Source: a virus (lineage: Duplodnaviria > Heunggongvirae > Uroviricota > Caudoviricetes). Taken from it: a DNA stretch of 64,000 nucleotides. The notes under the pieces are model-generated. The model worked only from the letters and a program-made list of their open reading frames with translations. It was not told where the DNA came from and searched no databases. Position numbers and translations under genes: made by a program. Shown one piece after another: positions 5,768 through 51,348 of the stretch. The stretch covers positions 83,287 to 147,286 of the IMG/VR virus record IMGVR_UViG_3300031143_000003, one strand, 5' to 3'. Every line of letters starts with the position of its first letter. The stretch's first letter is position 1.

Positions 5768-6583
5768 TTAACCTCCAGTAATTGTTATGTTGTCTAGACA
5801 TATATCGCCCTTATATGTTGTTCCAGATTTTGCGAAGAACCATACGTATACGCCAGCTGCATTGCCTGCAATATTGTTCAAGTCAATTTCAGCTTTTCTC
5901 CAATATCCTTGTGTAGATGTACTGGTATGTCCTGAAGTCTGCTGCTGGCCTGTTATCCGATCTGATGTCGTGGTAGCTGTCCCAGTGTTATTTGTCCAAT
6001 GTAATATGTCACATCCGCCACCAGTATCAGAAGTAAATCCAAATCCAGAATAAGATTCTACGGAACTATCTGCGCTGGTTGCACTATCTGTAATTGCTAC
6101 ACCCAATGATCCTATATTCGCACCATACATATGATACCAGAATTCCAACTTTAAGGTGCTATTTGCTGCGGCCGAAGATAGGTCTATCTCAGGAGTTCGC
6201 AATACAAATCGCTTATTATATTGGCCAGATGTTTCAGTATATATATATTTACTGGCAGCAGTTGTTGCTCCAGTTGTTAGTGATTCGTTCATACCGTATT
6301 TAGGCCCAGTATTAGATGACGGAGTTGTTCCACCTTCAATATCCCATTTCCGAGTTGAAGTCGTTGAACCATAGATTGTCGCAGCAATATTATTCAACCA
6401 ACCTGTTGGTGATACTCCATAGCCTTCGGATATGGCATTAAAGTTTTCCGATAGTAACGTTGCGCTTGATGCAGCTGGAATTGCTATTGCCGTCATATAG
6501 TATATGGAAGCTTTTGCTACACCAGATACTTTTGCAATAGTAGATATAGGGACGGCTGATACTTTCGCTATAAACGCTGGCAT
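5768..6583 (-). CDS. Putative virion/fibre-associated structural protein
   Basis: 271 aa, Ser/Thr/Gly-rich. Start overlaps the upstream fibre gene stop. Lies inside the fibre gene block. Confidence 0.5.
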   Translation of the reverse strand: MPAFIAKVSAVPISTIAKVSGVAKASIYYMTAIAIPAASSATLLSENFNAISEGYGVSPTGWLNNIAATIYGSTTSTRKWDIEGGTTPSSNTGPKYGMNESLTTGATTAASKYIYTETSGQYNKRFVLRTPEIDLSSAAANSTLKLEFWYHMYGANIGSLGVAITDSATSADSSVESYSGFGFTSDTGGGCDILHWTNNTGTATTTSDRITGQQQTSGHTSTSTQGYWRKAEIDLNNIAGNAAGVYVWFFAKSGTTYKGDICLDNITITGG

Positions 6584-8364: not shown

Positions 8365-8397
8365 ATTGTGTTTCCTTATGTATAAATATCAACGTTA

Positions 8398-11300: not shown

Positions 11301-12183
11301 TGTTTATTAATATGGATGATGAATTTCTGAAGTCGTGTCTTGCAAAATCATGATTATAATATGCTCTTTTGTATGGGGATAAACTACCGACGCCAATTGC
11401 AGCTGTTTGGGCCCCAATAGTAATTACACTAGAATCTGCGTCGAATGATAGATTTGTTTCGGTAGTCGAATCAATAGCAGTAATTCCTCCGCCACCTGAT
11501 GAAGCTGCGCCAGTTGCTCCTATATATCTATATCCAACTATCCACAGCGGCTTGGCATAGCCACTCATATCTGGTCCATCTCCATTACTCTGGTCGCCAC
11601 AATACATTATTCCCTGATAGTAATCGAACGCTGCTCCTCCGAAATTCTTACCAGTCTGCGTTCTACCACCGTATGGTATAGCATTCGAACTAGGTCCATT
11701 TGTCGATGTATCGTTTTCATATACAACCGCAGCATATCCTGGTCCAAACTTAGTTGGATTTAACCAATTCTTGAACCGGCTATCGGAATATTCAGCAACT
11801 TCGCCGGCTTGAACATCACCAGTATTAGCCTGGCTAGCTGATATGAATGCAACATATGTTTGGCCATTGCCGTCCATATCAGTTAGTGGCATAGTTATTT
11901 TTTCAAAATTTGGATCAGTACCTATACCAGTTGCCGATACAAATGCACCATCGTCCCATATTTCAGCAGTTGTTGCAAATGTTCCATCCCAAGTGCGACT
12001 TGTTGCAAATTCTGGCGCTACTGATGCATATTCAATGTCGCCAACGTCAGATAATAGTTCAGCTGAGTATATCTGGTGACTAGCTTCTAAGTCTTCACCT
12101 GATATTGGTCCTGGTCCAGTGTGTAGCTTTCCAAAAGCATGTTTAAATGACGCTTTACGTTGGTCGGTTGTATTGAATGCCAT
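8398..12183 (-). CDS. Giant tail fibre/structural protein (1261 aa)
   Basis: Long single ORF with an SD (GGAG) upstream. C-terminal ...ITASGNVSASGTITATSYIGSLTDMDGTIDGGTF resembles the repeats of the 593-aa protein and the C-terminus of the 206-aa protein. Confidence 0.65.
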   Translation of the reverse strand: MAFNTTDQRKASFKHAFGKLHTGPGPISGEDLEASHQIYSAELLSDVGDIEYASVAPEFATSRTWDGTFATTAEIWDDGAFVSATGIGTDPNFEKITMPLTDMDGNGQTYVAFISASQANTGDVQAGEVAEYSDSRFKNWLNPTKFGPGYAAVVYENDTSTNGPSSNAIPYGGRTQTGKNFGGAAFDYYQGIMYCGDQSNGDGPDMSGYAKPLWIVGYRYIGATGAASSGGGGITAIDSTTETNLSFDADSSVITIGAQTAAIGVGSLSPYKRAYYNHDFARHDFRNSSSILINNDSDANGAPYTDGADNQLLIPVIHMPLGFGFSIGFTSSNFESSDLTGHHYFEHSIADKWDYHATETSSNYLNLQYTDGANGNIPFNVRAVNQILPDQQNTKVQRAWYAGDTNSRIEFDITNKTKFEIADGLRQLINTSKCYQHVSASVYPIDSDYRLQVEQVYAGYPYADHSIKYYGSSTGSNLQEIPAHTFVSDHFTGGSTQTQNLYYPENCHNSDGVLFLNSWSIFGMKSSYMGALGFGTTVDVGFDNTQSPGFGDIPFFVYDKSMNSKASICLNDVTASGLPYGKDTVLVNGELGQLNPTNRSILKFGEMVIQNDLWQAGSHHQGKFANDPNHTTTIETLKAMMHDNSGFTDFVYSSDIPFIQYADSVASQKQAHNWPMLDMYDLMTPTYLKDYYDDPVHTNSGTVSLISGSITSPSSSGFINLAGYLDLDNREPSGSHINTTYASHSVYGVKYVVSSSGDTVWFQNYPSQSNNATYDVYYPKKQFAGTYVKEDRNASRGLVTYYPLTYNYIDPDKFSLSSAGAIQTITSPLKLIGDFEIAGTLSASAYQGITGGSGAGFPYTGDAVITGSLEVTSTFSLGGFADVSASLSTAIAGADDLGDHTATQTLDMASNAITNVTTVSASGHISASNIIGHNSGDQDLTAYSTNAQLNASSSILQTNINTKATTNTNATFATITSTGNTSFGNATTDNHAIEGNLKSGPAIIGISGSEKQTYNDGKLETFFKGPGEAHYSLYVRNGATIVGGDVIPDRPEYHSLGSKRFPFRHIHVSTGSIIFYSASADDSGSDAVEHARMGIDNTSGDVQFISGSDYKKIRVKEVNMGAFGAASSVQIGTQTQGFVAVNATAGSRSTILRAESAVLSDPDEVMGSITQKGSGSFAILLDADDQKPAAKFVIESNSGAVGYGNRLFSVSESMETRVYGNLKVDTHITASGNVSASGTITATSYIGSLTDMDGTIDGGTF

Positions 12184-12379: not shown

Positions 12380-15300
12380 CTACTCCTTTTCCATTGTTAT
12401 ATATGTTATGTTATGGTTTGATTCGGTTGCGTCAGCAGCTAATCGTATTTCAAGCAATACAATTGAGTCGGTATAATATACTGCGTAGTTTTTTGTGCTC
12501 CACAGTATAGCTACGGACGTTGATGTTGCCTGTGCGTGGCCAACAGGATAGAATGCTGCTGTCGATAAGTCTACCCAATTTTCAACAGATGGGGCAGTAG
12601 ATAGACCGGTACCAGCTGTCACAACAGACCAGTTTGTTCCAGATTTAGTTGGTAACTGACTATTAGTTGAATTGATTGCGCCTGGCAGTCTTGCTCTAAT
12701 TCGAATTTTTCGCGAATTGAAGTGTACGCTATCGCCATCGGCTATTGGCTGATCAGCCCATATATCCTCAGACGTTATGGGATCATTTGGATCACATCCA
12801 ATATGTAGTTTAATAACCTTGTGTTGGGTGGAAGATATATTTTGGACATTGATTGCTCTATAATAGAATCTGTCGCCAACTGAATTTGTATAGTCCGGAG
12901 CATTTGGATTAATTCCAGACGAATAGTCCTGTGTTGGGTATGTTAGCTGTCCAGATGTATTCTGCTGTAGGTCATCTGTTGTTGATATATCGACAGTTGA
13001 ATCGTATGCACAATTGGCAGCTGTTGTCCAATATGCATAATTTCCGGCACCAAGGTGATCACTAAATGACGATGTCTGGGATTTAGCGAGTCTGAATTCT
13101 TCGCTGTAGAAGTTTTCAGTTGTGGTTGATGAGGGCGAATGTGATCCGTTATCTACATATCTACCAATGATTGGTGTAATTGTTTCCGAACCACCTCCAT
13201 CATTGAATACAACTGTTGCAGATCTATTTGTGCCGGTTGTATTTGTTCCAGTAAATTGCGCTAGATATGATAGGTTTGCTGTATCTGAAACAGTCGGTAT
13301 ATCATTTGTGCTATTTGACCATGTTAATCCGTCATTGTGCGTTAGGTATCTACTGTAATCAGTATATGACCCATTTACATATATCTTGAGTCCAGTTTCT
13401 GTGTCAATTGTTCCAAATCTGCCAGATGTTACATTATATGTTTCGTTAGCTACACCAGTAATATATCCCGAATATGATATTTCGAATGGTACATCTGGTA
13501 TAAAGTAGTCTACGCCGGATAGCGACATGGTTGGAGAAGTGCTATTATATTCATTCCATGTGAACGCATTTGTTGCTGGCTGATTTATTGTAACAGTATG
13601 ATCGCCATCATCGTAATACCATCCATATACTGCAGATGTCTGCGTTACTCCTCCAATAGTTCGCTCTAGATACAGCTCATTGTATCCGGGGACATATTTT
13701 GATGTTATAGCTATTGTTGGTGAATAATGCTGGTAACCGACTGGATATAATTCAGTTCCATCATATACTGGTTGACTTATATTATTATGTACGCCACGTG
13801 TAATGGACAATACTCCACTTGTTTGAACCGCTTGAGTTGTTGCCTTAAGCGAATCATTGAATGTCGCATTTAGATCAATTGATGATACTTCAGCTGAGTT
13901 GATGTATAGTTTAATTGATCCAGACTCAGCATAATCATATAATTTACCAGGCATTGTCAACGTTATGCCATAATTTGTGCCAGCTGTCTTCAATATATTT
14001 GATACACTATCACCAGGTAAATCGCCAGATTTATATGTCCAAGTTGATTCGGACGGTAGTTGCGCTGTTTGTAATGATATGTTGTCAGTAAACGATTCAC
14101 CATGTATTGATGTTGGTTTGTTTGGTAATATATTAATAACCTGTGTTACAACTTCTTGTTCACTATCATTTACAATATTTGAATCAATCGTTGCAGTTAT
14201 ATTATATGAAGCAATGTTGTTGTTATTGGATATATCTGATATATCTATATACGCTATTGTCTTGCCTGATCCTAGCGTTACGATGTCAGATCCACCATTG
14301 TGTGTCCATACTACGTCATAGTTTGAAGCATTCATAGTATCGTATGACGAGGTAGTCATTGGGTCAGCAACAATTGTAGTATGTAGTTCGACATTGGTTA
14401 TTACATCAGAATGCCCAGACGAAATATAGTCATCTAACATGACAATTCCTGCACTAGCTGAATAGTGTGCAATATTTGGCGTAAGTGATGCATCTATTTC
14501 AGAATTGTCTGCAGCTTGAACTGTTACTGTCGCAGACGATATTGTTTCTGATATGTTAGTCCCATTTGTAATTGAATCATGTGAGGTAAACACTGGAACG
14601 AATGTGTTTCCAGATAAAACAAATTCAAACGGGATCCAGCTTGATGTAAATGTGGTATTCCATCTACCTGCATCCATTGATTCTGTTTGCACTGTTGATC
14701 TATTGATAGTATACGTTGTGCCATCGTAGGAGTAAACTGTTGACTCGGTATGTGGGCCGAACGGCTCTATTCGATTGACCATAAATTGAGTTCGAACCAA
14801 TTGGTCTTGTGCAATCTGAGTTGTTCCTGTAATTGCAACAAGTTGAGTTGTTGTTAATCCATGTAATAATTTTGATGTTCTAGTTGTTGTTGCTATATTT
14901 GAACCAGACGTATTCTGTTCAACCATCGATTGTGCAGTTATAATTGTATCAGCTATTGGTGCCATGATTAACTCAGCAGTTGTTGCAGAGAAATTATTAG
15001 TTATATTTGTGCCGTATAGTATTGTTGATATTGTATGTGTTCCAGCAACAAAGGTTGACTCTTGCCAGCTTGATGTGTATGATGTAACCAAGCTTATGTT
15101 TGCGTCATATGCCGATACTGGAGTTGGGTTAGATGAATTGGACAGAGAGATTGTTGTCAAATTTGTATTGCCATTTCTAAACAATGATGACATTGCATTA
15201 TGCGTTGGACCAAACGGCTCAGTCACAGTTGCAGTCAATCGATATCTAATTACTGACTCGTCCAAGTGTGCTTGCACATAGTTGGTCAACCCTTGTAATG

Positions 15301-18300
15301 TCGCAACGTCTGTTTCCAATAGTGAAGAATTATATCCATACATAACTTGTGCGGATCTACTTGAACCGCCAGTATCTGATAGATAATTTGATGTCTCAAC
15401 TTCTACAATTGGATTGGTTATCAATGTTTTCTGCAACGATAGCATTGTTAACGTAGCAGGCGTTATAGATGGGGAACCAGATATTGTTGTCCCACTAGTT
15501 ATATTTGCAGACAATGTATGTGAGTTTGCATTAAATGCAGAATCATTCCAACTTGATGTGTATGTCGATACCAATCTGCCGCTCACATATTCAGATGTTG
15601 CCGCTGATGCAGTTGCCAATGTTAATGATGCGATGTTAGAAGAATTGTCTGTAAACTGTATACTAGTTGTATTTGCCTTTGGACCAAACGGCTCAGTTGT
15701 TGTTGATGTTATTCTATATTGTATTATAGCTTCATCTAGGTGCTGAGCCTGGTAATATGGCATAGCAATTAGTGTGTCTTCTTCTGTGGTTAACAGTGAT
15801 GCATTGAATCCGTATAGTATTCTAGCTGTTCTAGTTGCTGCGCCAATTCCGGATCCATAACTTGTTGCTTCAACTTCAACAGTAGAATCAGTTATTTCCA
15901 ATTCGTCGTGCGCTGACATTGTTAATGCTGCAGATGCTATTGCTACCACTGCATTACTTAGGTTGTTACCAGATAGATCTGATGATATTGTTCGAGAGCC
16001 GACATTGAAAGTTGATTCTTGCCAGCTAGATGTGTAAGTGGTTACACGTTGATCTGTTCCATCATATATTGAGGAAGCTGTTCCATCAAACGTATCCTTG
16101 TTGACAGATATTGATACTAAGTTCGAACTATCGTCGGTAAATTGTGACGTTATGTAATCATGCTTTGGTCCAAATGGCTCAGTGATTTTACTCTTCAATC
16201 TATATCTAACTACTGCTTCGTCCTTGTGTATTTGCGCATAATTTGGCTCAGCGTACAAACTGGTAAGTCCAGATTCCAGTATAGATGAACCATAACCATA
16301 CATTAGTTTGGCTGTTCTATCCGATCCACCATTGCCTGATAGATACGATGTTGTCTCAACTTCAACGATTGATTCATTAATAACCGTTGCGTTTACTGAT
16401 AGTACTGATATCGTTGCTGGTGATATTACGCCTACGTTTATTCCAGTGTTTTGCGCAGCTGTTGTTATGTTTGCAGTTATTGTATGGTTTCCAGCTACAA
16501 ATACTGATTCTGTCCAACTAGATGTGTAATGTACAACAAGTTTATCCGATTCATATGTTGGGGATGTACCCGATGCTACGTGTGAGCTAGTCTTATTTAA
16601 TATAATAGTTTCTATGGTATTGCCAGCATCCGTAAATTCAACCGTTGTGTCCATGTGTGAAGGACCCTTAGGCTCAGTGATTGTTGCCGATATCCTATAC
16701 CTAACAACAGACTCATCCTTATGTTCTTGCTTGAAGTTGTCGTGGGCTTCTAGTGCTGAAATGTCTGATGGCTGAAGTGTTCCATTATATCCGTATAGTA
16801 TTCTAGCTGTTCGGCTGGATGTTGGACTATCCGAAAGATATGCCGATTCCAGTTCAATATTTATGTTTGATACTTCGATGTCCTCAATTGGATTAACAAT
16901 TACCTGTACAACATTTGATGGTGTTGCGTGGTGGTGATTATGGGTACCATGTCGTACCCCATCATCTAGGTTATTTATGTCGGTTACACCTGAAACTGTT
17001 CCAATATTATGTGTTCCAGTTTGTAGTGGTATATTAACAAAATCATCTAGACCAATTACAGCTGTTGTTCCAAACGCATTTCCAAATTCTGTTGCAATTG
17101 CGTTAGATCCAATGATTTTATATATTCCAACTGTATCTGCGTGCGTATATATTGTTGACGTGCCGTCATCTAGTATTTTTATTTCAGTGTCATGTCCAGC
17201 TACAGCTGTATATCCATTTGGTTCAGTTATTGTTGCTCCAACCTTCAATCTAACTAGCGATGACGTATATCTATTTGCTAAACTTGACGTTGTGGTTGCA
17301 GTTGTATAATTATCGTACATCATGTCGACGTTAATTGTTTCAACTTCATTACCAGTATATGCGTCTTCATTCAATGATAACGTTATGTTTGATATGCTAG
17401 CCGTAGCCGGGGGAGTTATTGCAACATTTACAGCCAAACTGCCGGTACCATTCGGGTTGTCATCAAACACTTCAACAGTATATTCATTTACATATGTTGC
17501 AGTATCATTTGATATTATATTATTAGATGTGTCAATTGTATTGTATGCTGATACAGACATAGTTACATGTAATTGGTCAGACGTTAGTGAATTATATGAT
17601 AATCCTGGTGCCTGTGTTTCATATGTTATTTGTGTTGTATTTTCTGTGTCATTGTTATGGTCTATGGTTGACGAAAATCGATGTTGATTTGACGATACAT
17701 GTTGATCACTTGTCATAAACGCATTGATACCACGTAGGAAATCAGATGTTGCCTCATCTGCGGTTATGTTTAAATCAGATGTTGTTGAAAAGTCAAGTAC
17801 AACTGATCCAGTTATTTCATCGTGATTTATTATTATCGGCAACGCTGATGTTAAATTGACGACTGGGTCAACATTGATGAAGCCGTATATTGTTATTGAT
17901 GTAAATAGATTCTTAGCAATACCGATAGCTGTATCTGCTGCATACACCATATATCTATGTGTACCTGGAGCTAGATCATTTTCGTATGGATCTACACCAG
18001 TGAGGTCGGGCACAGTTGCACCATCGGATCCAGTATAATATGATTGCGCTCCGACTTGTAATCGAGTGAATCCATTTTCAATTAGCTTATAGAATGCATA
18101 ATAGTTTGGTGCAAAATTGTCAGATGAAGTTGTATGTATTTCAATGTCTGATTTACTTGCCGTCTGTTGACCAGAAACAAGTTGTACATATGTATCTATT
18201 GACTGTGGAGGGTCTAAGTCTAATGCCGATTGTTTTCCAGTGTAGAAGTCTTGTTCAAATATACCAGTAAGGCCAGATCCATCCCCAATAAACGTTGTAG

Positions 18301-18415
18301 CGTTTATATCGCCGTCAACATTTAACGAGCTTGAAATAATTAAACCCGTTTTGAATTCTGCTGCGCTTCCAGATTGTATCCATGCGCTACTTGTAAATAT
18401 GTGTGTTCCTGCCAT
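12380..18415 (-). CDS. Giant fibre/structural protein (2011 aa) with five tandem ~160-aa repeat domains
   Basis: N-terminal FIGDGSGLTG module paralogous to the 146-aa protein. Internal repeats share (A/S)(R/K)ILYGYN..........RYR(I/L)..T(I/V)TEPFGP....TSSW.ES.F at aa ~510-1290. Confidence 0.7.
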   Translation of the reverse strand: MAGTHIFTSSAWIQSGSAAEFKTGLIISSSLNVDGDINATTFIGDGSGLTGIFEQDFYTGKQSALDLDPPQSIDTYVQLVSGQQTASKSDIEIHTTSSDNFAPNYYAFYKLIENGFTRLQVGAQSYYTGSDGATVPDLTGVDPYENDLAPGTHRYMVYAADTAIGIAKNLFTSITIYGFINVDPVVNLTSALPIIINHDEITGSVVLDFSTTSDLNITADEATSDFLRGINAFMTSDQHVSSNQHRFSSTIDHNNDTENTTQITYETQAPGLSYNSLTSDQLHVTMSVSAYNTIDTSNNIISNDTATYVNEYTVEVFDDNPNGTGSLAVNVAITPPATASISNITLSLNEDAYTGNEVETINVDMMYDNYTTATTTSSLANRYTSSLVRLKVGATITEPNGYTAVAGHDTEIKILDDGTSTIYTHADTVGIYKIIGSNAIATEFGNAFGTTAVIGLDDFVNIPLQTGTHNIGTVSGVTDINNLDDGVRHGTHNHHHATPSNVVQVIVNPIEDIEVSNINIELESAYLSDSPTSSRTARILYGYNGTLQPSDISALEAHDNFKQEHKDESVVRYRISATITEPKGPSHMDTTVEFTDAGNTIETIILNKTSSHVASGTSPTYESDKLVVHYTSSWTESVFVAGNHTITANITTAAQNTGINVGVISPATISVLSVNATVINESIVEVETTSYLSGNGGSDRTAKLMYGYGSSILESGLTSLYAEPNYAQIHKDEAVVRYRLKSKITEPFGPKHDYITSQFTDDSSNLVSISVNKDTFDGTASSIYDGTDQRVTTYTSSWQESTFNVGSRTISSDLSGNNLSNAVVAIASAALTMSAHDELEITDSTVEVEATSYGSGIGAATRTARILYGFNASLLTTEEDTLIAMPYYQAQHLDEAIIQYRITSTTTEPFGPKANTTSIQFTDNSSNIASLTLATASAATSEYVSGRLVSTYTSSWNDSAFNANSHTLSANITSGTTISGSPSITPATLTMLSLQKTLITNPIVEVETSNYLSDTGGSSRSAQVMYGYNSSLLETDVATLQGLTNYVQAHLDESVIRYRLTATVTEPFGPTHNAMSSLFRNGNTNLTTISLSNSSNPTPVSAYDANISLVTSYTSSWQESTFVAGTHTISTILYGTNITNNFSATTAELIMAPIADTIITAQSMVEQNTSGSNIATTTRTSKLLHGLTTTQLVAITGTTQIAQDQLVRTQFMVNRIEPFGPHTESTVYSYDGTTYTINRSTVQTESMDAGRWNTTFTSSWIPFEFVLSGNTFVPVFTSHDSITNGTNISETISSATVTVQAADNSEIDASLTPNIAHYSASAGIVMLDDYISSGHSDVITNVELHTTIVADPMTTSSYDTMNASNYDVVWTHNGGSDIVTLGSGKTIAYIDISDISNNNNIASYNITATIDSNIVNDSEQEVVTQVINILPNKPTSIHGESFTDNISLQTAQLPSESTWTYKSGDLPGDSVSNILKTAGTNYGITLTMPGKLYDYAESGSIKLYINSAEVSSIDLNATFNDSLKATTQAVQTSGVLSITRGVHNNISQPVYDGTELYPVGYQHYSPTIAITSKYVPGYNELYLERTIGGVTQTSAVYGWYYDDGDHTVTINQPATNAFTWNEYNSTSPTMSLSGVDYFIPDVPFEISYSGYITGVANETYNVTSGRFGTIDTETGLKIYVNGSYTDYSRYLTHNDGLTWSNSTNDIPTVSDTANLSYLAQFTGTNTTGTNRSATVVFNDGGGSETITPIIGRYVDNGSHSPSSTTTENFYSEEFRLAKSQTSSFSDHLGAGNYAYWTTAANCAYDSTVDISTTDDLQQNTSGQLTYPTQDYSSGINPNAPDYTNSVGDRFYYRAINVQNISSTQHKVIKLHIGCDPNDPITSEDIWADQPIADGDSVHFNSRKIRIRARLPGAINSTNSQLPTKSGTNWSVVTAGTGLSTAPSVENWVDLSTAAFYPVGHAQATSTSVAILWSTKNYAVYYTDSIVLLEIRLAADATESNHNITYITMEKE
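14546..16888 (-). repeat. Five tandem ~480-nt (160-aa) domain repeats inside the 2011-aa gene
   Basis: Protein-level periodicity (see the 2011-aa CDS). Coordinates approximate, derived from aa 510-1290. Confidence 0.6.
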
Positions 18416-18855
18416 TATTTTACAACCGTTGTGCCAACAACCCTAGTCTTAAGTGAGCTAGTGTTAACTGCTATTAATAAATATCTATTTACACCATTTT
18501 CTGCATTTGTATCAATACAATTATCATTTAGAATTAACCCATTTTGATATATTGTGTAGTTATTTGGATCAACCTCCGACCAACCATTTGATTTGTCCGA
18601 TAGGAATGTATAGTGGTCGTATGCAACTTCTGCCGATGCTGATAAGTGTATGTCTGATCCTATTAGTTCACCGCCAAAAGATATATCAGATGTTCCCTGA
18701 TTTGAGAATCCAGTTAGTGAACTACCGTTACCAATGAATGATCCAGATAACGTTCCATTGAAATCAACGGATCCTGTTACAATTACACCACTTATAAATT
18801 GTGCTGCTACACCTGCATGCTTAAATGAGCCTGAATATTCGAATCGACCAGGCAT
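18415..18855 (-). CDS. Short fibre-like protein sharing the N-terminal module of the 2011-aa protein
   Basis: 146 aa. GSVDFNGTLSGSFIGNGSSLTGF is paralogous to SLNVDGDINATTFIGDGSGLTGI of the 2011-aa protein. SD-like AGGAAA upstream. Confidence 0.55.
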   Translation of the reverse strand: MPGRFEYSGSFKHAGVAAQFISGVIVTGSVDFNGTLSGSFIGNGSSLTGFSNQGTSDISFGGELIGSDIHLSASAEVAYDHYTFLSDKSNGWSEVDPNNYTIYQNGLILNDNCIDTNAENGVNRYLLIAVNTSSLKTRVVGTTVVK

Positions 18856-20027
18856 TACATTTTCCTAATCATTGCATTAACTAATCCACCATCGGATGAT
18901 TCCAATGCTTGTGCTATTACTCTACCATGTAGATTAACCTGTGACAATTCGTCTGGAGAAATAGCTTTACCATGTCCAATCACGTCACTGGTTATAATAA
19001 AATCACCAATGTTTATGCTGCCGTCGATTAGTATTGGTTCTGCTCCCATTACAATTGGGTAATCTGCCTTTGCGTTTGATACTCCCATTACTAATGGGTC
19101 AGCCAAAGAATTACATGGAATTAAGCCTGTGATACTATGTACTAATATTGTTCCGATAGGCAAATGTTGAATATCTTTTGTTTCTAGGTTTATTTCGTGT
19201 ATACCGCCGAAGTATGTATTTTGTGCGTATAGATCTTTCCATTTCTTATCAGATGCTCCTAGATTATTTGATATGTCTGCAGATGGTAGCAATGTGCCGA
19301 TACTACTTGTATCAATACTGACTGGAGCATCCTTCCATGATATTGCACTTGCTGAATATGTTAGTATTTGGTCATCAGCTGCAGCAGCAAATGTTGGGAC
19401 TAGATTATCTTCAACATTAATATCATTGATATATAGACTATTTGAAACGTAGACGCTACCAGTGAATTCATGCTTATCGGTTATTGCATTTCCCCAGTTA
19501 TGGGAGCCAGTATGTGATTGTATAATTGTATCAGAAAATGTTACACCTGCAAATATTAGTGTACCCTTGAGTTGAGCTGATCCGGTTACTCGTAAATCCG
19601 TTGCATATATTGTTGAAGCCGATATATGCGTTGAGGCGGTTAATGATGTTATACTAACGTTACCAGTTGATTCAGACACATAGTTTTCAGTTGAATGATC
19701 TCCCCAACTATATGCACTGTCCCATTCGTTGGATCCAGTTGAATTTCCACGTTTTATTGGTTGAGCTAGATGTAAACTACCTGTAAACTGGTGCGTATCA
19801 TCACCATCATCACCAAATTTTGTTGATCCACTTGCAAATATCTCAGTTGATGACCCAGATATAACCAGTCGGTCTACCTTAAGTTCTCCAACTATTCTAA
19901 CATCTTCGCCTGATATATGTATTGGTAGGGATGATCCAGTTCCGTCGAGTAATTGACCGTCGCCAACTTGGACTAGTCGCGGATACGTATCCTGTATACT
20001 TGAGCCTGATAGATTAAATTGGGACAT
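18855..20027 (-). CDS. Fibre-like structural protein (390 aa)
   Basis: Shares ASGSTKFGDDGDDTHQFTG with the 593-aa protein and has (T/I)SASTIYA-type repeats. Confidence 0.55.
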   Translation of the reverse strand: MSQFNLSGSSIQDTYPRLVQVGDGQLLDGTGSSLPIHISGEDVRIVGELKVDRLVISGSSTEIFASGSTKFGDDGDDTHQFTGSLHLAQPIKRGNSTGSNEWDSAYSWGDHSTENYVSESTGNVSITSLTASTHISASTIYATDLRVTGSAQLKGTLIFAGVTFSDTIIQSHTGSHNWGNAITDKHEFTGSVYVSNSLYINDINVEDNLVPTFAAAADDQILTYSASAISWKDAPVSIDTSSIGTLLPSADISNNLGASDKKWKDLYAQNTYFGGIHEINLETKDIQHLPIGTILVHSITGLIPCNSLADPLVMGVSNAKADYPIVMGAEPILIDGSINIGDFIITSDVIGHGKAISPDELSQVNLHGRVIAQALESSDGGLVNAMIRKM

Positions 20028-20943: not shown

Positions 20944-21564
20944 TTAAAATGATCCACCATCAATTGGACCAATGAATGCAGAAGCAGATAATTCGCCTGC
21001 AGCTGTTATCTTTGCAACTTCTCTTGGTGGATTTGCCTTATTGGCTGAATCAGTTGTTAGAAATATGATGTCTCCAGCTGTGCCGGTTACGTCTGCATGG
21101 GTACAAACTGAATATATTGCTGCAGATGCACCAGGGTCACCAGCTTCATTTTCATCCATCCATTTGATGCCACCCATATTGTCGTTTACGGCCGCCTTCT
21201 GACTCATTTTATCATACGATATTTCTATGATTGATCCAGTATCAGGAGTTCGTTTTTTGGTTTTAAATTCACCAGATATTTCAAAATCTTTAGTTGGATT
21301 TTTAGTGTTTATGCCAATCTTTCCAGATGACGAATAGTAAAATGGGACACGATCAGCTAATCCACCGAACGATGCAGATGGTATTCTGAATTCTATATTT
21401 TTTGATTCGGATCCCTCTAGTCCCCATGTACCCATTACAACAGCTGTACTTTCATCGATCATGGTTGTCATTGATCCGGATGGCCCAGCTACTTCAATTG
21501 ACTGGCTCACAGTAATTGACGTTGAACCACTCGTGAATTCTATGTTATTGCTTATTGATGCCAT
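20944..21564 (-). CDS. Small fibre-associated protein (206 aa)
   Basis: C-terminal ELSASAFIGPIDGGSF resembles the C-terminus of the 1261-aa protein. 20-nt overlap with the upstream tail fibre gene. Confidence 0.5.
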   Translation of the reverse strand: MASISNNIEFTSGSTSITVSQSIEVAGPSGSMTTMIDESTAVVMGTWGLEGSESKNIEFRIPSASFGGLADRVPFYYSSSGKIGINTKNPTKDFEISGEFKTKKRTPDTGSIIEISYDKMSQKAAVNDNMGGIKWMDENEAGDPGASAAIYSVCTHADVTGTAGDIIFLTTDSANKANPPREVAKITAAGELSASAFIGPIDGGSF

Positions 21565-24500
21565 TGAACATCTCCGTTAATTCTAATATTTGTTGTTTCA
21601 TATTGGCTATTTCTAGTTGTTGATCCTGTACACTTTTTACAAGAATAGGGATTAAGCCATCCCTATTTATAAACCATCTATCCGGATTTGATGTGTCTAC
21701 TAATTCCGGTAATACTTTATTCAATTCTTGGGCTATGAATCCAGTTTCTTTTTTGCCATCAGACTTCCATTCAAAATCTCGGACGTTTATAGCCAATAGA
21801 TCAGCCAAGGTTTTGTTGGTGTCAATTATGCTTTTCTTAAGACGAACATCAGATGATTCATATACCTTTATACCATTACCATCTGGTCGCGCATAACCAG
21901 ATTCTCCATTTGGTCCATGATAGCTTATAAATCTACCAGTTGAAGTTGTATTGTCAGTTTCCAACTTTAAGACTCTAGCATCAGTTGTTGAACTATGTTT
22001 CAAATGCGCAGTATAATTACCTGCTGAAGACGTTATAAACATTCCACCTTCATCGCCACCATCATTATATAATTTACCTTTACCGAAGAATGAATATGAA
22101 TAGCCAGAATATGCAGATGCATCAGCAATTATTGCAATTGCATTATTCTGACCCAATGTACCTGTATATGTAGTTGCTTCGGCTTTGAAGATTGCCCCAA
22201 TTTTTGTACCACCAGCGTAACATACGCCACCAGCATTGCATCGAGAGCTTAATGAATTTGCAGAGGCTACAACATCGTATGTAGACCAGGTTGAATCTAG
22301 AGTGCCCTCAGATACTCCAACATATAGACCCAAATCCTGTGATGTTGAACCTCCAGAATTTGATTGCTTTATATATGCTACAGCATCATTTGTTCCTAGT
22401 GCAGCTGTCCGATTGATTTGTAGAACCCCGTCTTCGATTTTGATACCGGGATTCGTTCCGTCTACATTGTCATCAATTGTTAATATTGGGGATGTGGTAG
22501 TACCATAGAATTTTAGGTTTGAATTTTGGCCGTCTATGATGAGACCTTGTGTCGACGTTCCAACATTACTACCGCCAAACGTTATCTTCTCGCCATTCAG
22601 ATCCATTTCCGTACCAGTAGTAGTTGTCCAGTTGTTTGATTTGACCTTACCTGAAGATATATTATCTCCAGATATTCTCGTAGATCCGCCGCCAGATTGA
22701 AATTCCGATATTCTAATGTAATCTATATTGGTTGTTGAGACCGAACCTGTTTTGTAATTTGTAATAATCAAAGGGGATATGTATTCAACATTATTATGGA
22801 GGGTCGTTGGATTAGTTATAGTTGGAGCTGATGCACCATTATCAGACGAAGACCTACCTTTGAAATATCCCTTGTATATTGTCCAATCTGTATTACCAAT
22901 ATCTTCAGCACTCAATGCAACATAATGTTGACTATAAGTACCGTTTGAACCATTGATATTTACATAGGTTGAACCATCCAAGGCATACCCATTTATCCCA
23001 ACATAAGCTCGAGCAGTAGAACCAATCTTAGTAGCTTTAAGTCTAATTTCGATTTCATATAATGATGCTGGATTCAATGGTATTAACTGGTTGCTTATCA
23101 TCCAGGTTCTAGTATTTGTAGTAGTACCATCACCAAGTTTTAGCGATCTAGACCCCTTTATATGACCCTCATCTGTTTTGAAGGTACGGGGTGCAGTCTC
23201 ACCAGTAGGAATATACCAACCTTCACCGGAGCCATCGGTCTTAGGATTATTTACTGATGATGTCATATCGGACATAGCGGCATATGTTGAGAAGTCTTCA
23301 TAGAATATTGTATTGAAGCCGTTTGACTCGCCAGCAAGAGATAGCATATTCGTAGATGCATTCCAGGATAATCCAGCGGAGGTGTTTGTTCCACCAAGAT
23401 AAAAGTCTCCAGAGGAAGACATATATGTATCCCATCCACTTCCACTATAATAACCTAAATTATTGGCGCCAAGGAATAAACCCTTTCCGGATGGAGTTGG
23501 AGAAAAATCGATCAAACCTGCTGATGTATTTGGTATTAATTCTGCATTTGAATCAGCGACTGCTTGTGCTGCTGCGGCTGCATTTGCAGCTGTTGTTGCA
23601 TTGGCACCAACTGTTGAAGTTAATGTAGATGTTGCATTTGCAGCTGTTGTTGCATTGGCACCAACTGTTGAAGTTAATGTAGATGTTGCATTTGCAGCTG
23701 TTGTTGCATTGGCAGTTATGCCCATAACATCATTAGTGTCAGTGAATGCCTCTATTGTTATAGCGCCTTTAACGACCAATTGTGTTCCATTCCAAGAAAA
23801 TTTATCAGCTAAGCTAAAGTTTCCAGTGTTATCAACATAGAATGCCGTGTCAGCATCACTATGTGTGCCATCTCCAATATACAGTTTGTCTGATTCTATG
23901 TCAACGCCACCAATTCTACCCGATGTTGCTGTTATTTTTCCAGTTAAGAATACATTTTCGGAGTATAATCCATATCCAGGATCAGTTAAGCTACCAATAC
24001 CACTAAGATCACCTAGTCTAGCTTTTACTTCTACATCATTGACTCCAGAACCAGTTCGTTCTATTATATCAATATACGGTGTACTGTTGTCACCAGGATC
24101 AGCATTGAGATGTATATAACCACTTTGTGTTACTTGACCAGGATTAGTTGTATTGTCATATAGACCTGCCGAAATTAATACTTGACCGTCAGTTACAGAT
24201 GGGATATATGGACCTCCACCAATTCGTCTAACCATATCTAATGATATAGGATCAGCCGATATTGTGTCGATCTGCATTATCTCCTCTACAAAACCAGTTG
24301 ACGATGTTGCTTTAGCTCTAACATATTCACCAACTACCCATCCGCCAGTATTTGCAACTGTAAATGAGTGTGTTGGATTACCAGTTCCGTCGAAGTCCAA
24401 ATTACTACCAGTAAATGTTGTCGCATTAGCAATCATTACTTGCCCACCTACTGCAGATATCGTGTCTTTTTCGAATACAGTCGTTCCAAGTGTACCACGT

Positions 24501-25144
24501 ACCTTAACATTGGCAAATTCAGCTTCAGTGCCATCTATCTTCCAACCAGTTTGATTAGAAATATAATCCTTAGTCTTTATTTCACCAGATGAATCTATTA
24601 CCAAATTAGAACTCGATAACGATGTTGCATTAATTGACCATCCAGATATGGACGAATTACCCGGGGACAAATTAACAGCATATGTTCCGGCGCCATCACC
24701 TACGAATTTTGCATCACCTGAACTAGATATGTATGCTGTTGCATTGTTTGCGTCTTTTCCGGCTGGCACAAATAATTGATTAGCAGATAAATCAGCGTTT
24801 ATAACTGTTCCTGCACCAATAATTAAGCTGTTGTTCAATGGATCAAGATGGAATAGTGAGGAAGATATTTCAATATTACCATCTGATCCAGATATGTATT
24901 GCGTATTCGCTGTTCCAACGAAGAACTTCTTAGCTCTAATATCCAATTCTGCACCTGCTGCTGATGCATCAAATTTCAAATATGAGTCTGATCCGGCGAC
25001 TAATTCCATTCCAACGCCATTGTATAAACTACCTGATAATTCTTGTGATCCAGACCAAAGCATCCATCCTGAAGGTCCTGTTCCATCTGATGCTGAGTCA
25101 AATCCCTTATAGTCTATTGTTTTTATATTAGCCTGATTAGCCAT
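21545..25144 (-). CDS. Tail fibre/tailspike with C-terminal intramolecular chaperone (Peptidase_S74-like) domain
   Basis: 1199 aa. C-terminus SSDVRLKKSIIDTNKTLADLLAINVRDFEWKSDGKKETGFIAQELNKVLPELV...DRWFINRDGLIPILVKSVQDQQLEIANMKQQILEL matches the SD.RLK...L..L....Y.W......GFIAQE...V.PE.V pattern of self-cleaving fibre chaperone domains. Strong SD (AGAGGAG) upstream. Contains a perfect 54-nt tandem duplication. Confidence 0.75.
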   Translation of the reverse strand: MANQANIKTIDYKGFDSASDGTGPSGWMLWSGSQELSGSLYNGVGMELVAGSDSYLKFDASAAGAELDIRAKKFFVGTANTQYISGSDGNIEISSSLFHLDPLNNSLIIGAGTVINADLSANQLFVPAGKDANNATAYISSSGDAKFVGDGAGTYAVNLSPGNSSISGWSINATSLSSSNLVIDSSGEIKTKDYISNQTGWKIDGTEAEFANVKVRGTLGTTVFEKDTISAVGGQVMIANATTFTGSNLDFDGTGNPTHSFTVANTGGWVVGEYVRAKATSSTGFVEEIMQIDTISADPISLDMVRRIGGGPYIPSVTDGQVLISAGLYDNTTNPGQVTQSGYIHLNADPGDNSTPYIDIIERTGSGVNDVEVKARLGDLSGIGSLTDPGYGLYSENVFLTGKITATSGRIGGVDIESDKLYIGDGTHSDADTAFYVDNTGNFSLADKFSWNGTQLVVKGAITIEAFTDTNDVMGITANATTAANATSTLTSTVGANATTAANATSTLTSTVGANATTAANAAAAAQAVADSNAELIPNTSAGLIDFSPTPSGKGLFLGANNLGYYSGSGWDTYMSSSGDFYLGGTNTSAGLSWNASTNMLSLAGESNGFNTIFYEDFSTYAAMSDMTSSVNNPKTDGSGEGWYIPTGETAPRTFKTDEGHIKGSRSLKLGDGTTTNTRTWMISNQLIPLNPASLYEIEIRLKATKIGSTARAYVGINGYALDGSTYVNINGSNGTYSQHYVALSAEDIGNTDWTIYKGYFKGRSSSDNGASAPTITNPTTLHNNVEYISPLIITNYKTGSVSTTNIDYIRISEFQSGGGSTRISGDNISSGKVKSNNWTTTTGTEMDLNGEKITFGGSNVGTSTQGLIIDGQNSNLKFYGTTTSPILTIDDNVDGTNPGIKIEDGVLQINRTAALGTNDAVAYIKQSNSGGSTSQDLGLYVGVSEGTLDSTWSTYDVVASANSLSSRCNAGGVCYAGGTKIGAIFKAEATTYTGTLGQNNAIAIIADASAYSGYSYSFFGKGKLYNDGGDEGGMFITSSAGNYTAHLKHSSTTDARVLKLETDNTTSTGRFISYHGPNGESGYARPDGNGIKVYESSDVRLKKSIIDTNKTLADLLAINVRDFEWKSDGKKETGFIAQELNKVLPELVDTSNPDRWFINRDGLIPILVKSVQDQQLEIANMKQQILELTEMFNGINKQ
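23582..23714 (-). repeat. Perfect 54-nt tandem repeat (2.5 copies) inside the tail fibre gene
   Basis: atttgcagctgttgttgcattggcaccaactgttgaagttaatgtagatgttgc repeated at 23582-23635 and 23636-23689, plus 25 nt of a third copy. It encodes (TSTLTSTVGANATTAANA)n. Confidence 0.9.
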
Positions 25145-27178: not shown

Positions 27179-30100
27179 TTAATATTGTACTAGACTCGTT
27201 GAATCTGTTACGTCTATTTCAATTAAACTGTCAACCATATCCTTCATGATGTCAATATGTGACACAATCATTAGAAAGTCGAATTCAGTCTTGAGATAAC
27301 CAAATAATAATTCAAGTGAGCTGATGTTGGTTGAATCTAGGTTACCGAATCCTTCATCAATAATTAGGAAGTTCGGACGTGGTAAGTTAGATACCTTAAT
27401 CAATGCAACTCTAATTGCTAATGAGCTTATAAACTTTTCCATACCCGAAGTCATTTCAAGTGGCCACATATTGTCGTCGTATTTTATGTAGCTCAATATG
27501 TCCTTACCGTCAACGTCAAAACGTATCTCAAAATCAACTATTTGCGAAAGTGTATTGTTTACTTCCTCTTCAATGTATGGTAATGTTTCTGCAATAATTT
27601 CATATGGAATTCCATCGCGTCTAATTGCATCTAAATAATATTCGTATGACTTGAGTTTCAATTCTAATTCATGTGCATCACCAATTATTGTCTGAATTGA
27701 TTCAATTGTTTGTTTTGCCATGGATACACTACTGAATGCATTACGTAATACTATGTTTTGGGACGATATTCTACCCTTGATCGATGATCTATTTGATTCT
27801 AGGCTAGACAGTTCCAGGTTTATAGATATATTATGCTTTATTGCAGCTTCATTTTGGTAATATATAACAATACTTGCATCAACATCAGTTAAATTTCTAT
27901 TTGATTCAAGTAATGCATTTCTACGTCGTTCCAATTTTGTAACAACTTCTGACTCATATCGAATATATTTTGATTGGTCATTTGTTAGTGTGCTATACGC
28001 ACGAATATCATCCGATATTTTGGCTGCACCTTGTAGCAATTTGTCAGAGTCCGATTTAGCTGCCAATAACGATGCCACGACCAGTTTATCGTCTAATAAT
28101 TCAATTTTTGCATCTTCAGCTGATTTAACAAAGTCGTTGTTGCAACAGTATTCGCAGTTTGGATCATATTCATGCTTTGCTAACTTTGATATTGATGTTA
28201 ATTTATTTTGTACGTTTACCTTGATTATGCCAATCTTTTGCTGAATCTGTCTGTTATTTGACTGTTCAGTTTGCATTGTTGCATGTTGCGTGTTCAATTG
28301 AACTATGTCATATGATAACATCTCTGTTGCCAGTTCGTCCAACTTTAGTTTATTTGTTTCCATATACGCCGAATATTTTTCCAGCTTATCTGTATGATCA
28401 ACGATATCTGATGCGACATTGCTTCTAGTTAATTGCATAGCAGCCAAGTCTGTTGATACTGATACATGCTTTAGTTCCGCAGATTTATCCTTTATTGATA
28501 ATTCGGCAGCGTCTAAATCTTCAGTTAATTTAGCTTGTTGTGCAGATAACGTGTCGTATGCTATTACATGTTCATCCAACAAGTATTCTGCGTCAATTAA
28601 TTTTTGCGCATAATCTACATTCTTAAAATTTCGCAGTAATGTTTGTACAGACTTTATTTCGTCATTGGCTAATCTAAATAATTCCTCGAAAACAAATATG
28701 TCTAAAAACTTAGACAATAGATTTTTCTTTTCCGGTTGAGGTTTATCAATGAATCCAGTATTGTTATTTTGCATTGACATTGCTGTTAGTACAAAATCCT
28801 CATATATTCCCAAATATCCAGTTATGTTTCTATCTGTATATCTACGTTGTTCACCATTAAGTGATAGTTTTTCACCGGATTCATCGATCATCCAAAAGTC
28901 AACATCAACTCGAACCGATTTACCATCCTTGTTTCGTTTTCCCCTACGTTCAACAAAATAATCTACACCGTCTATTTCAAAGTTTAATTTGCTATTGAAT
29001 GTATCTAATCTATTATTCATTACATTTGCAGCAGAGAATGTTCTAGAGCATTTATTGAATAAGCAGAACATTAGCGCATCAAATATTGCAGATTTACCAG
29101 CATGGTTAGGGGCAAATATTCCAATCACATCGTTCGCCTTAGAAAAGTCAATTTTATTGTTTGGCCCATAGCTGAACATGTTGTCGAATTCAAACGTTTT
29201 GGGTTTCCAATTGATTCCCCTTGATACATCGGCGTCAAGTAATCGTTTATTCAATTCCCTGTTTATGTTCTTAATTCTACGCATTGTCTCATCATCTGGA
29301 TTATGATTTGTTCTAATATAATCATCCAACAATTGATTCTGATATGAAACGTCACGAATATCCCTAACAATCTTTCTAGTTTTCTTATTTTGTGCATCCA
29401 ATCTATCGTTTCTAATTATAACGATGTCAGTTGTTTTGCAGCTAGTTTTAATTGTTTTAGTTAATTCCTTTATTTGAGCTTGAGTTGTATTTGTTGTACG
29501 CAATCTAACCCGGGGATACTTTGGTATATCTGATATATTGGGAAGTACACCATCAGCTATATCAATAGTATAATATCCGTAATTATTTGTGAAGTCTACA
29601 AATTCGACAGTCCTAGATTTAACATCCCATATGCCACATCCATGGTTTTCAAATGCTTCACCAAAATTTTGTTGCAATGTTGAGCCAATCTGTAGTATCG
29701 TTTTTGCTTCGTCGTAAAATTGTCGCTTATGAATATCTCCCAACATTGACATGTCATATCCATCAAACATTGTTACGGGCAAATTGTCATTACTAACAAC
29801 ATATCCCTTATCAGTAGTCGACTTATCAACTGCACCATGAAATAATGCTATCTTTGTTTCGGCGTCAAATGAGTCCGATTTAATAAATGTAGCAGGATCA
29901 TCAAATATTCCAAATACTGTGAAGTGCACATTTGCTATATGATATACACCTGAATCCTTTAGGTAGTGCAAGTTTGGATGATTTAGCGCTGAAATTATTG
30001 GCGTTAATGAGTCCAACCTAGTTGAATTATTTAGATTTGCATCATGATTACCAGTTATAACAATAGTATGTCGTCTATCTGCTAAATTAGTAAAGAATTC

Positions 30101-30325
30101 AGACGTTAGTTCAATTAACTCTGGTGATATGTCAGTTTTACTATGTACAATATCTCCGCCTACATAGACAATAGCGTTTTTAGGAAGGCGATCGATCTCG
30201 TCATATAGTTGTTTGAATACAGCACGGTATTCCGCATGTCGCTGATAGTTTCGAATATGGATATCAGCCACGTGTAATATTTTGTCAATTTCATTAAATC
30301 CTACGTCTATTTTATTAAAATCCAA
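27179..30325 (-). CDS. Fused Mre11-Rad50 (SbcD-SbcC; T4 gp47+gp46 equivalent) recombination nuclease/ATPase
   Basis: 1048 aa. N-terminus has phosphoesterase motifs VADIH, GGDIVH, GNHD, GDIH (Mre11/SbcD). Then Walker A FAPNHAGKS, long coiled coils, zinc hook CEYC, signature SGME, Walker B LIIDEGF, H-loop IVSH (Rad50/SbcC). Confidence 0.85.
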   Translation of the reverse strand: MDFNKIDVGFNEIDKILHVADIHIRNYQRHAEYRAVFKQLYDEIDRLPKNAIVYVGGDIVHSKTDISPELIELTSEFFTNLADRRHTIVITGNHDANLNNSTRLDSLTPIISALNHPNLHYLKDSGVYHIANVHFTVFGIFDDPATFIKSDSFDAETKIALFHGAVDKSTTDKGYVVSNDNLPVTMFDGYDMSMLGDIHKRQFYDEAKTILQIGSTLQQNFGEAFENHGCGIWDVKSRTVEFVDFTNNYGYYTIDIADGVLPNISDIPKYPRVRLRTTNTTQAQIKELTKTIKTSCKTTDIVIIRNDRLDAQNKKTRKIVRDIRDVSYQNQLLDDYIRTNHNPDDETMRRIKNINRELNKRLLDADVSRGINWKPKTFEFDNMFSYGPNNKIDFSKANDVIGIFAPNHAGKSAIFDALMFCLFNKCSRTFSAANVMNNRLDTFNSKLNFEIDGVDYFVERRGKRNKDGKSVRVDVDFWMIDESGEKLSLNGEQRRYTDRNITGYLGIYEDFVLTAMSMQNNNTGFIDKPQPEKKNLLSKFLDIFVFEELFRLANDEIKSVQTLLRNFKNVDYAQKLIDAEYLLDEHVIAYDTLSAQQAKLTEDLDAAELSIKDKSAELKHVSVSTDLAAMQLTRSNVASDIVDHTDKLEKYSAYMETNKLKLDELATEMLSYDIVQLNTQHATMQTEQSNNRQIQQKIGIIKVNVQNKLTSISKLAKHEYDPNCEYCCNNDFVKSAEDAKIELLDDKLVVASLLAAKSDSDKLLQGAAKISDDIRAYSTLTNDQSKYIRYESEVVTKLERRRNALLESNRNLTDVDASIVIYYQNEAAIKHNISINLELSSLESNRSSIKGRISSQNIVLRNAFSSVSMAKQTIESIQTIIGDAHELELKLKSYEYYLDAIRRDGIPYEIIAETLPYIEEEVNNTLSQIVDFEIRFDVDGKDILSYIKYDDNMWPLEMTSGMEKFISSLAIRVALIKVSNLPRPNFLIIDEGFGNLDSTNISSLELLFGYLKTEFDFLMIVSHIDIMKDMVDSLIEIDVTDSTSLVQY

Positions 30326-31248: not shown

Positions 31249-31692
31249 TTATGAAAATTTTATGGTGCTTATTTTCTCGAATGTTTGTTCTGTTAATCTA
31301 ACTCTGGCGAAGCGCCTAGGGCCTATGCAATCATTGTAAAAATCTGATTTTGCTGAAACATGGAATCGGTGGTGGATGTTTTCCTCAAGATAGTTTACCT
31401 GTCCCTTTGTTTCACCAAGTATCAATATCTCAAATGTGAAGTTGGATTTACCGAGTTTAGCTATATCTGAATTCAGTAGCTTGGATGATCCAGTGTATTC
31501 TCGCCAATTTGAATCCTTTCTAATAACCTTTCTGCGAGTTTTGCCTGGTACCTTTATTCGTCGAGTTGTACCAAAGTATTTTCTACCGACGTATTTTTTT
31601 CCAGTTTGATTGTTTGTTATTAAGTAAACAAAACCAAACATGTCTTCTGGGGTTTCACTCAGAATTGACCCATTATATAACCAATGTGACAT
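31249..31692 (-). CDS. GIY-YIG family endonuclease (free-standing, Seg-like homing endonuclease candidate)
   Basis: 147 aa. GFVYLITN...GKKYVGRK (GIY...YIG-like) with downstream conserved R/E/N positions. Inserted between primase and a structural gene. Confidence 0.6.
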   Translation of the reverse strand: MSHWLYNGSILSETPEDMFGFVYLITNNQTGKKYVGRKYFGTTRRIKVPGKTRRKVIRKDSNWREYTGSSKLLNSDIAKLGKSNFTFEILILGETKGQVNYLEENIHHRFHVSAKSDFYNDCIGPRRFARVRLTEQTFEKISTIKFS

Positions 31693-51233: not shown

Positions 51234-51268
51234 TTGTTATTTGTTATTTGTTATTTGTTATTTGTTAT
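51234..51268 (-). repeat. Heptanucleotide tandem repeat (TTGTTAT)x5 immediately 5' of the nucleotidase start codon
   Basis: ttgttat repeated five times at 51234-51268. It appears to be an expansion of the tttgtttaatttgttat part of the conserved intergenic element. Confidence 0.9.
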
Positions 51269-51348
51269 TTATAGTTAAATATAATCATAATCGATTAACC
51301 CGGAAAATAAATTTAACATTATTTTCAAAAGTTATTAACAATTTCTAT

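Follow-up and report, generated by a model that had tools for sequence, protein, structure and literature searches.

A length-polymorphic in-frame tandem repeat in the tail-fibre gene of an uncultured marine phage

The tail-fibre gene and its tandem array

The stretch of DNA analysed here (the window) comprises 64,000 nt of a Caudoviricetes virus, positions 83,287 to 147,286 of the IMG/VR record IMGVR_UViG_3300031143_000003, and has a G+C content of 36%. It contains a gene for a 1199-aa tail fibre inside which a 54-nt unit is repeated head to tail (Table 1). Tandem Repeats Finder (TRF) describes this array with a period of 54, 2.5 copies, 100% matches, no indels and a score of 272. An earlier note on the same DNA had placed a perfect 54-nt repeat at 23582-23714; its two exact copies and partial third copy stand, and its start was 3 nt off. 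The exact unit occurs twice in the window and in none of 100 dinucleotide-preserving shuffles. This is the sole strong tandem array across the window and the sole perfect coding array there.

On the coding strand the unit reads GCC AAT GCA ACA ACA GCT GCA AAT GCA ACA TCT ACA TTA ACT TCA ACA GTT GGT. It thus spans 18 codons, and the array is in frame with the fibre open reading frame (ORF), where it is translated as ANATTAANATSTLTSTVG twice and then ANATTAANA, with codon 478 at 23713-23711. The unit given in the earlier note, TSTLTSTVGANATTAANA, is the same repeat as ANATTAANATSTLTSTVG read in another phase. The 28-nt partial copy and its twin at the opposite end of the array form a direct repeat encoding ANATTAANA. 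Identical head-to-tail copies of a unit between 10 and 100 nt long, a multiple of three and inside an ORF, are what one expects of a coding minisatellite. The array was reproduced identically in an independent Joint Genome Institute (JGI) assembly (L001). Moreover, the 136-nt array contains no repeated k-mers at k ≥ 99; hence the 2.5 copies of the window are not an assembly artefact.

Table 1. Features of the tail-fibre gene, its tandem array and the nearby baseplate gene (positions in the window)
Feature	Positions	Strand	Details	Basis
54-nt perfect tandem array	23579-23714	minus	2.5 copies, 136 nt; residues 478-522 and last base of codon 477	TRF, exact search, coding-strand reading
Full unit copy	23579-23632	minus		exact-unit search
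Full unit copy	23633-23686	minus		exact-unit search
Partial third copy	23687-23714	minus	28 nt	k-mer analysis and coding-strand reading
Tail-fibre gene	21545-25144	minus	1199 aa	ORF list, translation, Pfam, PHROG
Conserved N-terminal part	23714-25144	minus	residues 1-477; common to hundreds of homologues	alignments
Ala/Thr/Asn-rich stalk segment	23540-23737	minus	residues 470-535; predicted as one continuous alpha-helix	single-sequence AlphaFold2 (AF2)
Small adaptor domain after the predicted helix	23327-23539	minus	residues 536-606	local blastp, sequence views
Peptidase_S74 intramolecular-chaperone domain	21698-21853	minus	residues 1098-1149	Pfam
gp6-like baseplate wedge gene	40866-42728		near the fibre gene	

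The assignment to a tail fibre, made in the earlier note, is borne out by several independent features. The protein carries a C-terminal Peptidase_S74 domain (PF13884; Pfam, E = 1.3e-10, 41.8 bits versus a cut-off of 22), at the start of which stands SSDVRLKK (residues 1097-1104), presumably the counterpart of the Ser...Lys cleavage motif of S74 chaperones. It matches the PHROG tail fiber family phrog_5668 (E = 1e-19) and further PHROG tail-fibre families, and, as expected for a tailed phage, it is encoded among tail and baseplate genes that include a gp6-like wedge gene. We found 491 homologues in a large protein collection, one of them named 'tail fiber domain-containing protein' by NCBI. 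They have mainly the N-terminal ~460 residues in common with the fibre, and in two alignments (A2 and A4) the invariant and near-invariant columns all lie in residues 14-411 except one.

The identical fibre protein is encoded on ~147-kb contigs from marine metagenomes. Among cultured phages, a nucleotide search returned no match to the fibre, and a protein search returned only distant matches to its C-terminal and middle domains. No close relative of the fibre was found in an IMG/VR scan, nor any match in a sequence search of the PDB. A homologue search with residues 440-620 alone (181 aa, 23285-23827, minus strand) returned nothing, not even the parent protein, probably because low-complexity candidates swamp the word-indexed search. 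Among cultured phages, the baseplate gene is closest to those of Microcystis phage Mel-JY01 (48%) and of the Flavobacterium 'immuto' myophages (41%).

Several other roles for the array DNA were considered and rejected. Hairpin-promoted slippage was rejected, since the array folds no better as DNA than shuffled sequence (z = –1.1). A regulatory element was rejected because promoter-like and terminator-like matches around the array are at chance level only. A plus-strand ORF at 23463-23840 is the antisense of Ala codons and not an opposite-strand gene; all convincing genes of the window are on the minus strand. The two N-A-T sequons per unit are expected by chance from composition.

Copy-number alleles in natural genomes

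The earlier note had predicted length variation, and had held that a single invariant copy number in all reads and relatives would speak against it. The comparison recovered three copy numbers. A 90%-identity cluster of the fibre has exactly three members, of 1181, 1199 and 1217 aa, which are 100% identical except that they carry 1.5, 2.5 and 3.5 units, respectively; all are full-length ORFs. Metagenome contigs of the same phage, 0-21 single-nucleotide polymorphisms (SNPs) from the window, likewise bear 1.5, 2.5 or 3.5 perfect copies. The 1.5-copy array is spanned in a 147-kb ENA contig (L002/L017; MEGAHIT k141) with 0 SNPs over 23.5 kb, and in two further ENA contigs, L008 with 21 SNPs and L021 with 0 SNPs over 6.8 kb. 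The 2.5-copy array is spanned in L001/L007 (JGI 3300031687), which differs by 3 SNPs, all synonymous and clustered. A perfect 190-nt array of 3.5 copies with both flanks present was found in L018 (JGI 3300031647; 3 SNPs in 8.4 kb). The SNP comparisons for L018, L001 and L008 cover 8-10 kb. The L018 allele was reached through the upstream neighbour gene, and look-ups with flanking genes also yielded many contigs that end at the array.

Relative to the window, one unit (which copy is indistinguishable) is absent from L002, L008 and L021, and one is extra in L018. The alleles therefore differ by whole units between conserved flanks, as in a minisatellite, with array sizes of 82, 136 or 190 bp, and every copy-number state is represented on two or more SNP backgrounds. 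The smallest allele, with 1.5 copies, has 28-nt direct repeats (ANATTAANA) on either side of a 26-nt unique part encoding TSTLTSTVG.

SNPs between these near-identical contigs fall in tight patches of 2-19, with long perfect identity between them. Patches lie at 19791-19803, 19730-19741, 18736-18817, 21400-21420, 24731-25019 and 29684-29813, and the three SNPs at 19791-19803 are all synonymous. This distribution points to short tracts of gene conversion or recombination rather than to point mutations scattered along the genome.

Of the contigs examined, at least six stop in or at the array, and the lengths of these ends are informative. Two k141 contigs, L010 on the downstream side and L022 on the upstream side, end with exactly 136 nt of array; the JGI contig L011 ends with 126 nt, which is k–1 for k = 127; and L009, from the MEGAHIT k141 pipeline, contains 152 nt of pure array, requiring at least 3.5 copies. 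We compared these ends with an idealised de Bruijn graph simulation and k-mer analysis on synthetic alleles. In the simulation, a 136-nt break at k = 141 arises only when the 2.5-copy allele is mixed with a longer one, and a 126-nt break at k = 127 requires an allele of at least 3.5 copies. Graph ambiguity is confined to k ≤ 79 for 2.5 copies, k ≤ 127 for 3.5 and k ≤ 141 for 4.5, and at k = 141 no k-mer is repeated within an array of 1.5, 2.5 or 3.5 copies. Judged from assemblies, the length polymorphism is real and some samples hold mixed alleles, so that the variation predicted in the earlier note is found between natural genomes, with signs of it within single samples. Length heterogeneity within and between populations, one of the features of a contingency locus, is thus present at the level of assemblies, as three alleles and as mixed-allele contig ends.

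Overall, with a probability of roughly 0.75, we regard the array as a coding minisatellite that keeps the reading frame, lies in the tail-fibre stalk of a myophage and gains and loses whole units, and whose length is tolerated or near-neutral. Whole 54-nt units would be added or removed when the perfect 28-nt direct repeats misalign, either through slippage during replication or, in a recombination-proficient T4-like phage, through unequal homologous recombination. The population would then carry alleles of 1.5, 2.5 and 3.5 or more copies while the remaining genome stays almost unchanged, and the copies would remain identical because of repeated gain and loss.

The array at a joint between fibre modules

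The array lies exactly at the joint between the conserved N-terminal part of the fibre and exchangeable distal modules. In the 5.8 kb upstream of the array, only 2 SNPs separate contig L023 from the window. From the array onward (window 23713/23714; L023 position 5826 onward), identity drops from 100% to 85-88% in the array region and ~60% beyond, and the distal fibre part is a different one. By this alignment, a recombination breakpoint is located exactly at the 5' edge of the array, at the 3' end of the conserved N-terminal coding part. The array of L023 is an imperfect 1.5-copy version, ANATTAANA-TTALTSTVG-TNATTAANA, with a 24/27 nt match between its flanking repeats. Finding a 1.5-copy array in this diverged genome points to 1.5 copies as the older state and to recent gain and loss as the source of the perfect copies in the lineage of the window.

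Other family members point to the same joint. In the query fibre, a copy of an F.L....SWN.....L..G motif stands on each side of the helix-plus-adaptor module; P0002 (75% identical to the query) is without the whole module, as is the Tara relative L003 (75% identical), the only sequence returned by a scan of metagenome contigs. The adaptor motif, LIPN..GL.D..P.P.G.GL.LG...LGYY.G..W..YMSSSGDFYL, is also present in other family members, where it comes immediately after the low-complexity repeats that each of them has. Tandem repeats at the amino-acid level are present in 20/126 homologues, mostly in Ser/Thr/Ala/Asn-rich segments, and in the six members checked they lie between a conserved FSL.DK.SW.G..L...G.I.I motif and the conserved adaptor domain. 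Repeat units in the family are mostly 7, 11, 14, 18, 22, 28 or 42 residues long. These lengths fit whole numbers of helical turns, a pattern that is only suggestive because many of the arrays are phylogenetically related.

A sister lineage with ~146-kb genomes and the same gene order as the window phage has an unrelated 42-nt unit, encoding AQSTANTATASAAA, at the equivalent position. L004 and L005 contain 2.7 perfect copies of it; L006 has one unit fewer, with 1.7 copies plus a diverged unit, and the flanks are 99.9% identical. The fibres of this lineage (P0009-P0012) vary by 14-aa units: a single unit separates the otherwise identical P0010 and P0011, and P0009 and P0012 show further unit variants, up to ~5.7 units. 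In L004-L006 the fibre is also split, into an 892-aa protein without the chaperone (6001-8679) and a separate 333-aa Peptidase_S74 protein (8679-9680), whereas a single 1199-aa ORF of the window holds the two parts together.

One could regard the array as a leftover of module shuffling, in which imprecise joins of similar Ala/Thr-rich linkers leave duplications without function. The sharp breakpoint of L023 exactly at the array's 5' edge, the loss from P0002 of the whole module between the two F.L....SWN motif copies, and the different distal modules that follow similar linkers across family members are all in line with such a scar. However, a single event would explain neither the three whole-unit alleles on identical backgrounds nor why the copies match perfectly, and L002, with 0 SNPs in 23.5 kb relative to the window, already suggests that copy number changes without exchange of the flanking modules. 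As a full account we therefore consider a scar doubtful, while it is largely compatible with a coding minisatellite: it covers the origin of the array and not its ongoing dynamics. In the minisatellite reading, the low-complexity segment would double as a joint for the exchange of distal fibre modules.

Several observations were made elsewhere in the window. An ORF of 1048 aa (27179-30325, minus strand) fuses an SbcD-like N-terminal part (Metallophos) to an SbcC-like C-terminal part (SMC_N/AAA_23), and the fusion is kept in the sister lineage (1050 aa in L004); the SbcD and SbcC subunits are usually separate. Between this ORF and a Laminin_G_3 protein lies a 147-aa ORF (31249-31692, minus strand), annotated in an identical ENA contig as PF19835 (SegE-like GIY-YIG homing endonuclease), which may be a mobile endonuclease gene. 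Two very large minus-strand ORFs, 12380-18415 (2011 aa) and 8398-12183 (1261 aa), lie downstream of the fibre genes and have no PHROG match; a weak tandem repeat with a 27-nt unit (1.9 copies, 80%) is present at 14176-14226 in the 2011-aa ORF. The heptamer AACAAAT is repeated at 51216-51270 (minus strand) as 5 exact units within a 7.7-copy TRF array that lies immediately upstream of an NT5C-like gene (50784-51233) and overlaps its ATG, and this tract is closer in look to a classical simple-sequence tract than the fibre array is.

Stalk length, mutation and selection

AF2 applied to residues 452-606 alone, as a single sequence, predicts a continuous helix over residues 470-535; across the array, the predicted local distance difference test score (pLDDT) is 95-98. 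After the helix, a small beta-rich domain is predicted at low confidence. The array segment is probably alpha-helical and part of a trimeric helical bundle, which is our best guess from a monomer prediction. If helical, the 18-residue unit would correspond to 18/3.6 = 5 turns, or ~2.7 nm, and the 1.5-, 2.5- and 3.5-copy alleles would have helices of ~48, 66 and 84 residues. Each unit would thus add five turns to the stalk, preserving the reading frame and probably also the helical register of the distal receptor-binding modules, and only the reach or flexibility of the fibre would be altered by the number of units. Stalks of variable length are known from the adenovirus fibre shaft, trimeric autotransporter adhesins and the collagen-like host-specificity repeats of Streptococcus thermophilus phages. 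These stalks are trimeric, how far the distal binding domain reaches depends on the number of repeats, and modules are also exchanged by recombination at the repeats. They differ from the fibre array in structure (beta-spiral, YadA-like coiled coil and collagen triple helix) and in their units, and have no sequence relationship to it.

Some results weigh against a minisatellite in a helical stalk. In a full-length AF2 model (50-sequence alignment, mean pLDDT 55.6) the helix covers only residues 504-532 with pLDDT below 55, and residues 478-503 are left as coil with pLDDT below 50. In the array, hydrophobic periodicity peaks at 2.0 residues and is next strongest at 3.5-3.6; in the arrays of the relatives P0009 and P0004 the peak lies at 3.5. 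Allele frequencies and within-sample heterogeneity come from contig ends and an idealised graph model, not from reads, and two contig ends, L009 at 152 nt and L019 at 94 nt, fall outside that model; they may be coverage dead ends. Finally, spanned 1.5-copy arrays come from ENA MEGAHIT assemblies only and spanned 2.5- and 3.5-copy arrays from JGI only, and the two sources may represent the same samples assembled twice, since their accession numbers are adjacent.

The closest experimental precedent is the Enterococcus phage EfV12-phi1, whose tail-fibre gene acquired a variable number of in-frame 1.8-kb tandem duplications under coevolution (Wandro et al. 2019, PMC6365445). Both cases concern identical head-to-tail, in-frame duplications in a myophage long-tail-fibre gene, upstream of the receptor-binding part, and in both several copy numbers coexist in one population. 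In contrast to the 1.8-kb unit of EfV12-phi1, which arose in laboratory coevolution and is linked to host resistance, the unit described here is 54 nt (18 aa), lies in a low-complexity stalk and comes from natural metagenomes. A second comparison is offered by Borg elements, which have nucleotide-perfect, recent and fast-evolving tandem repeats inside ORFs, with units that are multiples of three (Schoelmerich et al. 2023, PMC9879509). The fibre array resembles them in its perfect in-ORF units and in the independent origin of repeats at equivalent sites of related genomes. It differs in that Borg repeats are genome-wide and proposed to form disordered regions, whereas the fibre has a single perfect coding array in 64 kb and a probably helical stalk.

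Phage contingency loci, the category to which the earlier note had assigned the array as a candidate, consist of simple-sequence tracts (homopolymers or short repeats) that undergo reversible ON/OFF frameshifts (Gomez, Barrick & Waters 2025, PMC12633550). The fibre array shares with them length heterogeneity in the population, here probably repeat-mediated and driven by polymerase or recombination, and a location in a host-interaction gene; contingency loci give mixed progeny. The assignment fails in its strict sense. In place of a short unit in many copies there is a 54-nt unit in 1.5-3.5 copies, and only protein length changes. Every allele is in frame (18 codons per unit, full-length ORFs), so there is no on/off or frameshift switching, and with promoter and terminator signals at chance level nothing indicates a promoter-spacing switch. 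The earlier note's proposal of epitope variation is likewise unsupported, because the units are identical and only length changes. Related to the simple-sequence loci are the poly-G tracts in receptor-binding genes of Campylobacter phages.

A true contingency locus could still act through length. Selection would then keep unit gain and loss frequent and reversible, with mixed fibre lengths in each burst and reach matched to the thickness of the host surface layer. Such bet-hedging would be consistent with several alleles coexisting on near-identical backgrounds, probably within single samples, with the location in a host-recognition gene, and with the evolution of an unrelated variable repeat at the same place in the sister lineage. 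Moreover, EfV12-phi1 acquired its in-frame tandem tail-fibre duplications repeatedly, and solely when it coevolved with a resistant host (PMC6365445). However, the unit is long and the copies few, and the slippage rate should hence fall far below that of simple-sequence tracts; no allele alters frame or expression; identical units create no new epitopes; and polymorphism alone is equally expected of a neutral minisatellite. We consider bet-hedging unlikely. We favour a coding minisatellite whose length polymorphism is tolerated, near-neutral or at most fine-tunes reach, and which is not a programmed switch.

A more speculative possibility, to which we give equally little weight, is that the stalk repeat acts as a selected length ruler. 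Fibre lengths would be kept in register-preserving quanta (18 aa here; 14, 22 and 28 aa in relatives) that track the thickness of the host capsule or surface layer, and the same joint would catalyse swaps of distal receptor-binding cassettes. If true, host range would diversify at two levels, by length tuning and by module exchange, recurring convergently at one position of the fibre.

The least probable alternative is that the true array has one fixed length, perhaps longer than any contig, which assemblers collapse to 1.5, 2.5 or 3.5 copies depending on k. Many contigs do break at the array, copy number tracks the data source, and shortest-path collapse of a long array would give 1.5 copies at k ≤ 79, 2.5 at k 99-127 and 3.5 at k 141, that is, the observed set. 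However, to yield 1.5 copies the graph must contain k-mers that link the two flanks across 82 nt of array, and to yield 2.5 copies it must contain array k-mers that a 1.5-copy genome does not have; neither allele could therefore be built from the other's reads at k ≥ 33, according to k-mer analysis and the logic of unitig assemblers. In addition, outcomes differ between samples inside a single pipeline: within MEGAHIT k141 the array is spanned at 1.5 copies (L002, L008, L021), broken at 136 nt (L010, L022) or extended to at least 152 nt (L009), and within JGI it has 2.5 copies, 3.5 copies or a break. The heptamer array at ~51216-51270 served as an internal control: all three spanning contigs show an identical set of 5 exact units, so the pipelines do not generally scramble repeats. 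Alleles of the sister lineage differ in unit sequence too, not in number alone. An assembly artefact is therefore very improbable as the source of the copy-number alleles.

The value of the system lies in natural length alleles on near-clonal backgrounds, a convergent repeat at the same position in the sister lineage, and an array that coincides with a module-exchange breakpoint. Uncultured marine phage populations that are nearly clonal by SNPs can still vary in tail-fibre length. The array provides a marker of a size suited to the polymerase chain reaction (82, 136 or 190 bp) for tracking such microdiversity; short-read assemblies tend to break at the array, and variation of this kind is hence under-reported. 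If fibre length affects adsorption, the fibre would be a simple natural system for the tuning of host recognition by stalk length; if it does not, it would be a clear-cut case of a neutral coding minisatellite located where modules are exchanged.

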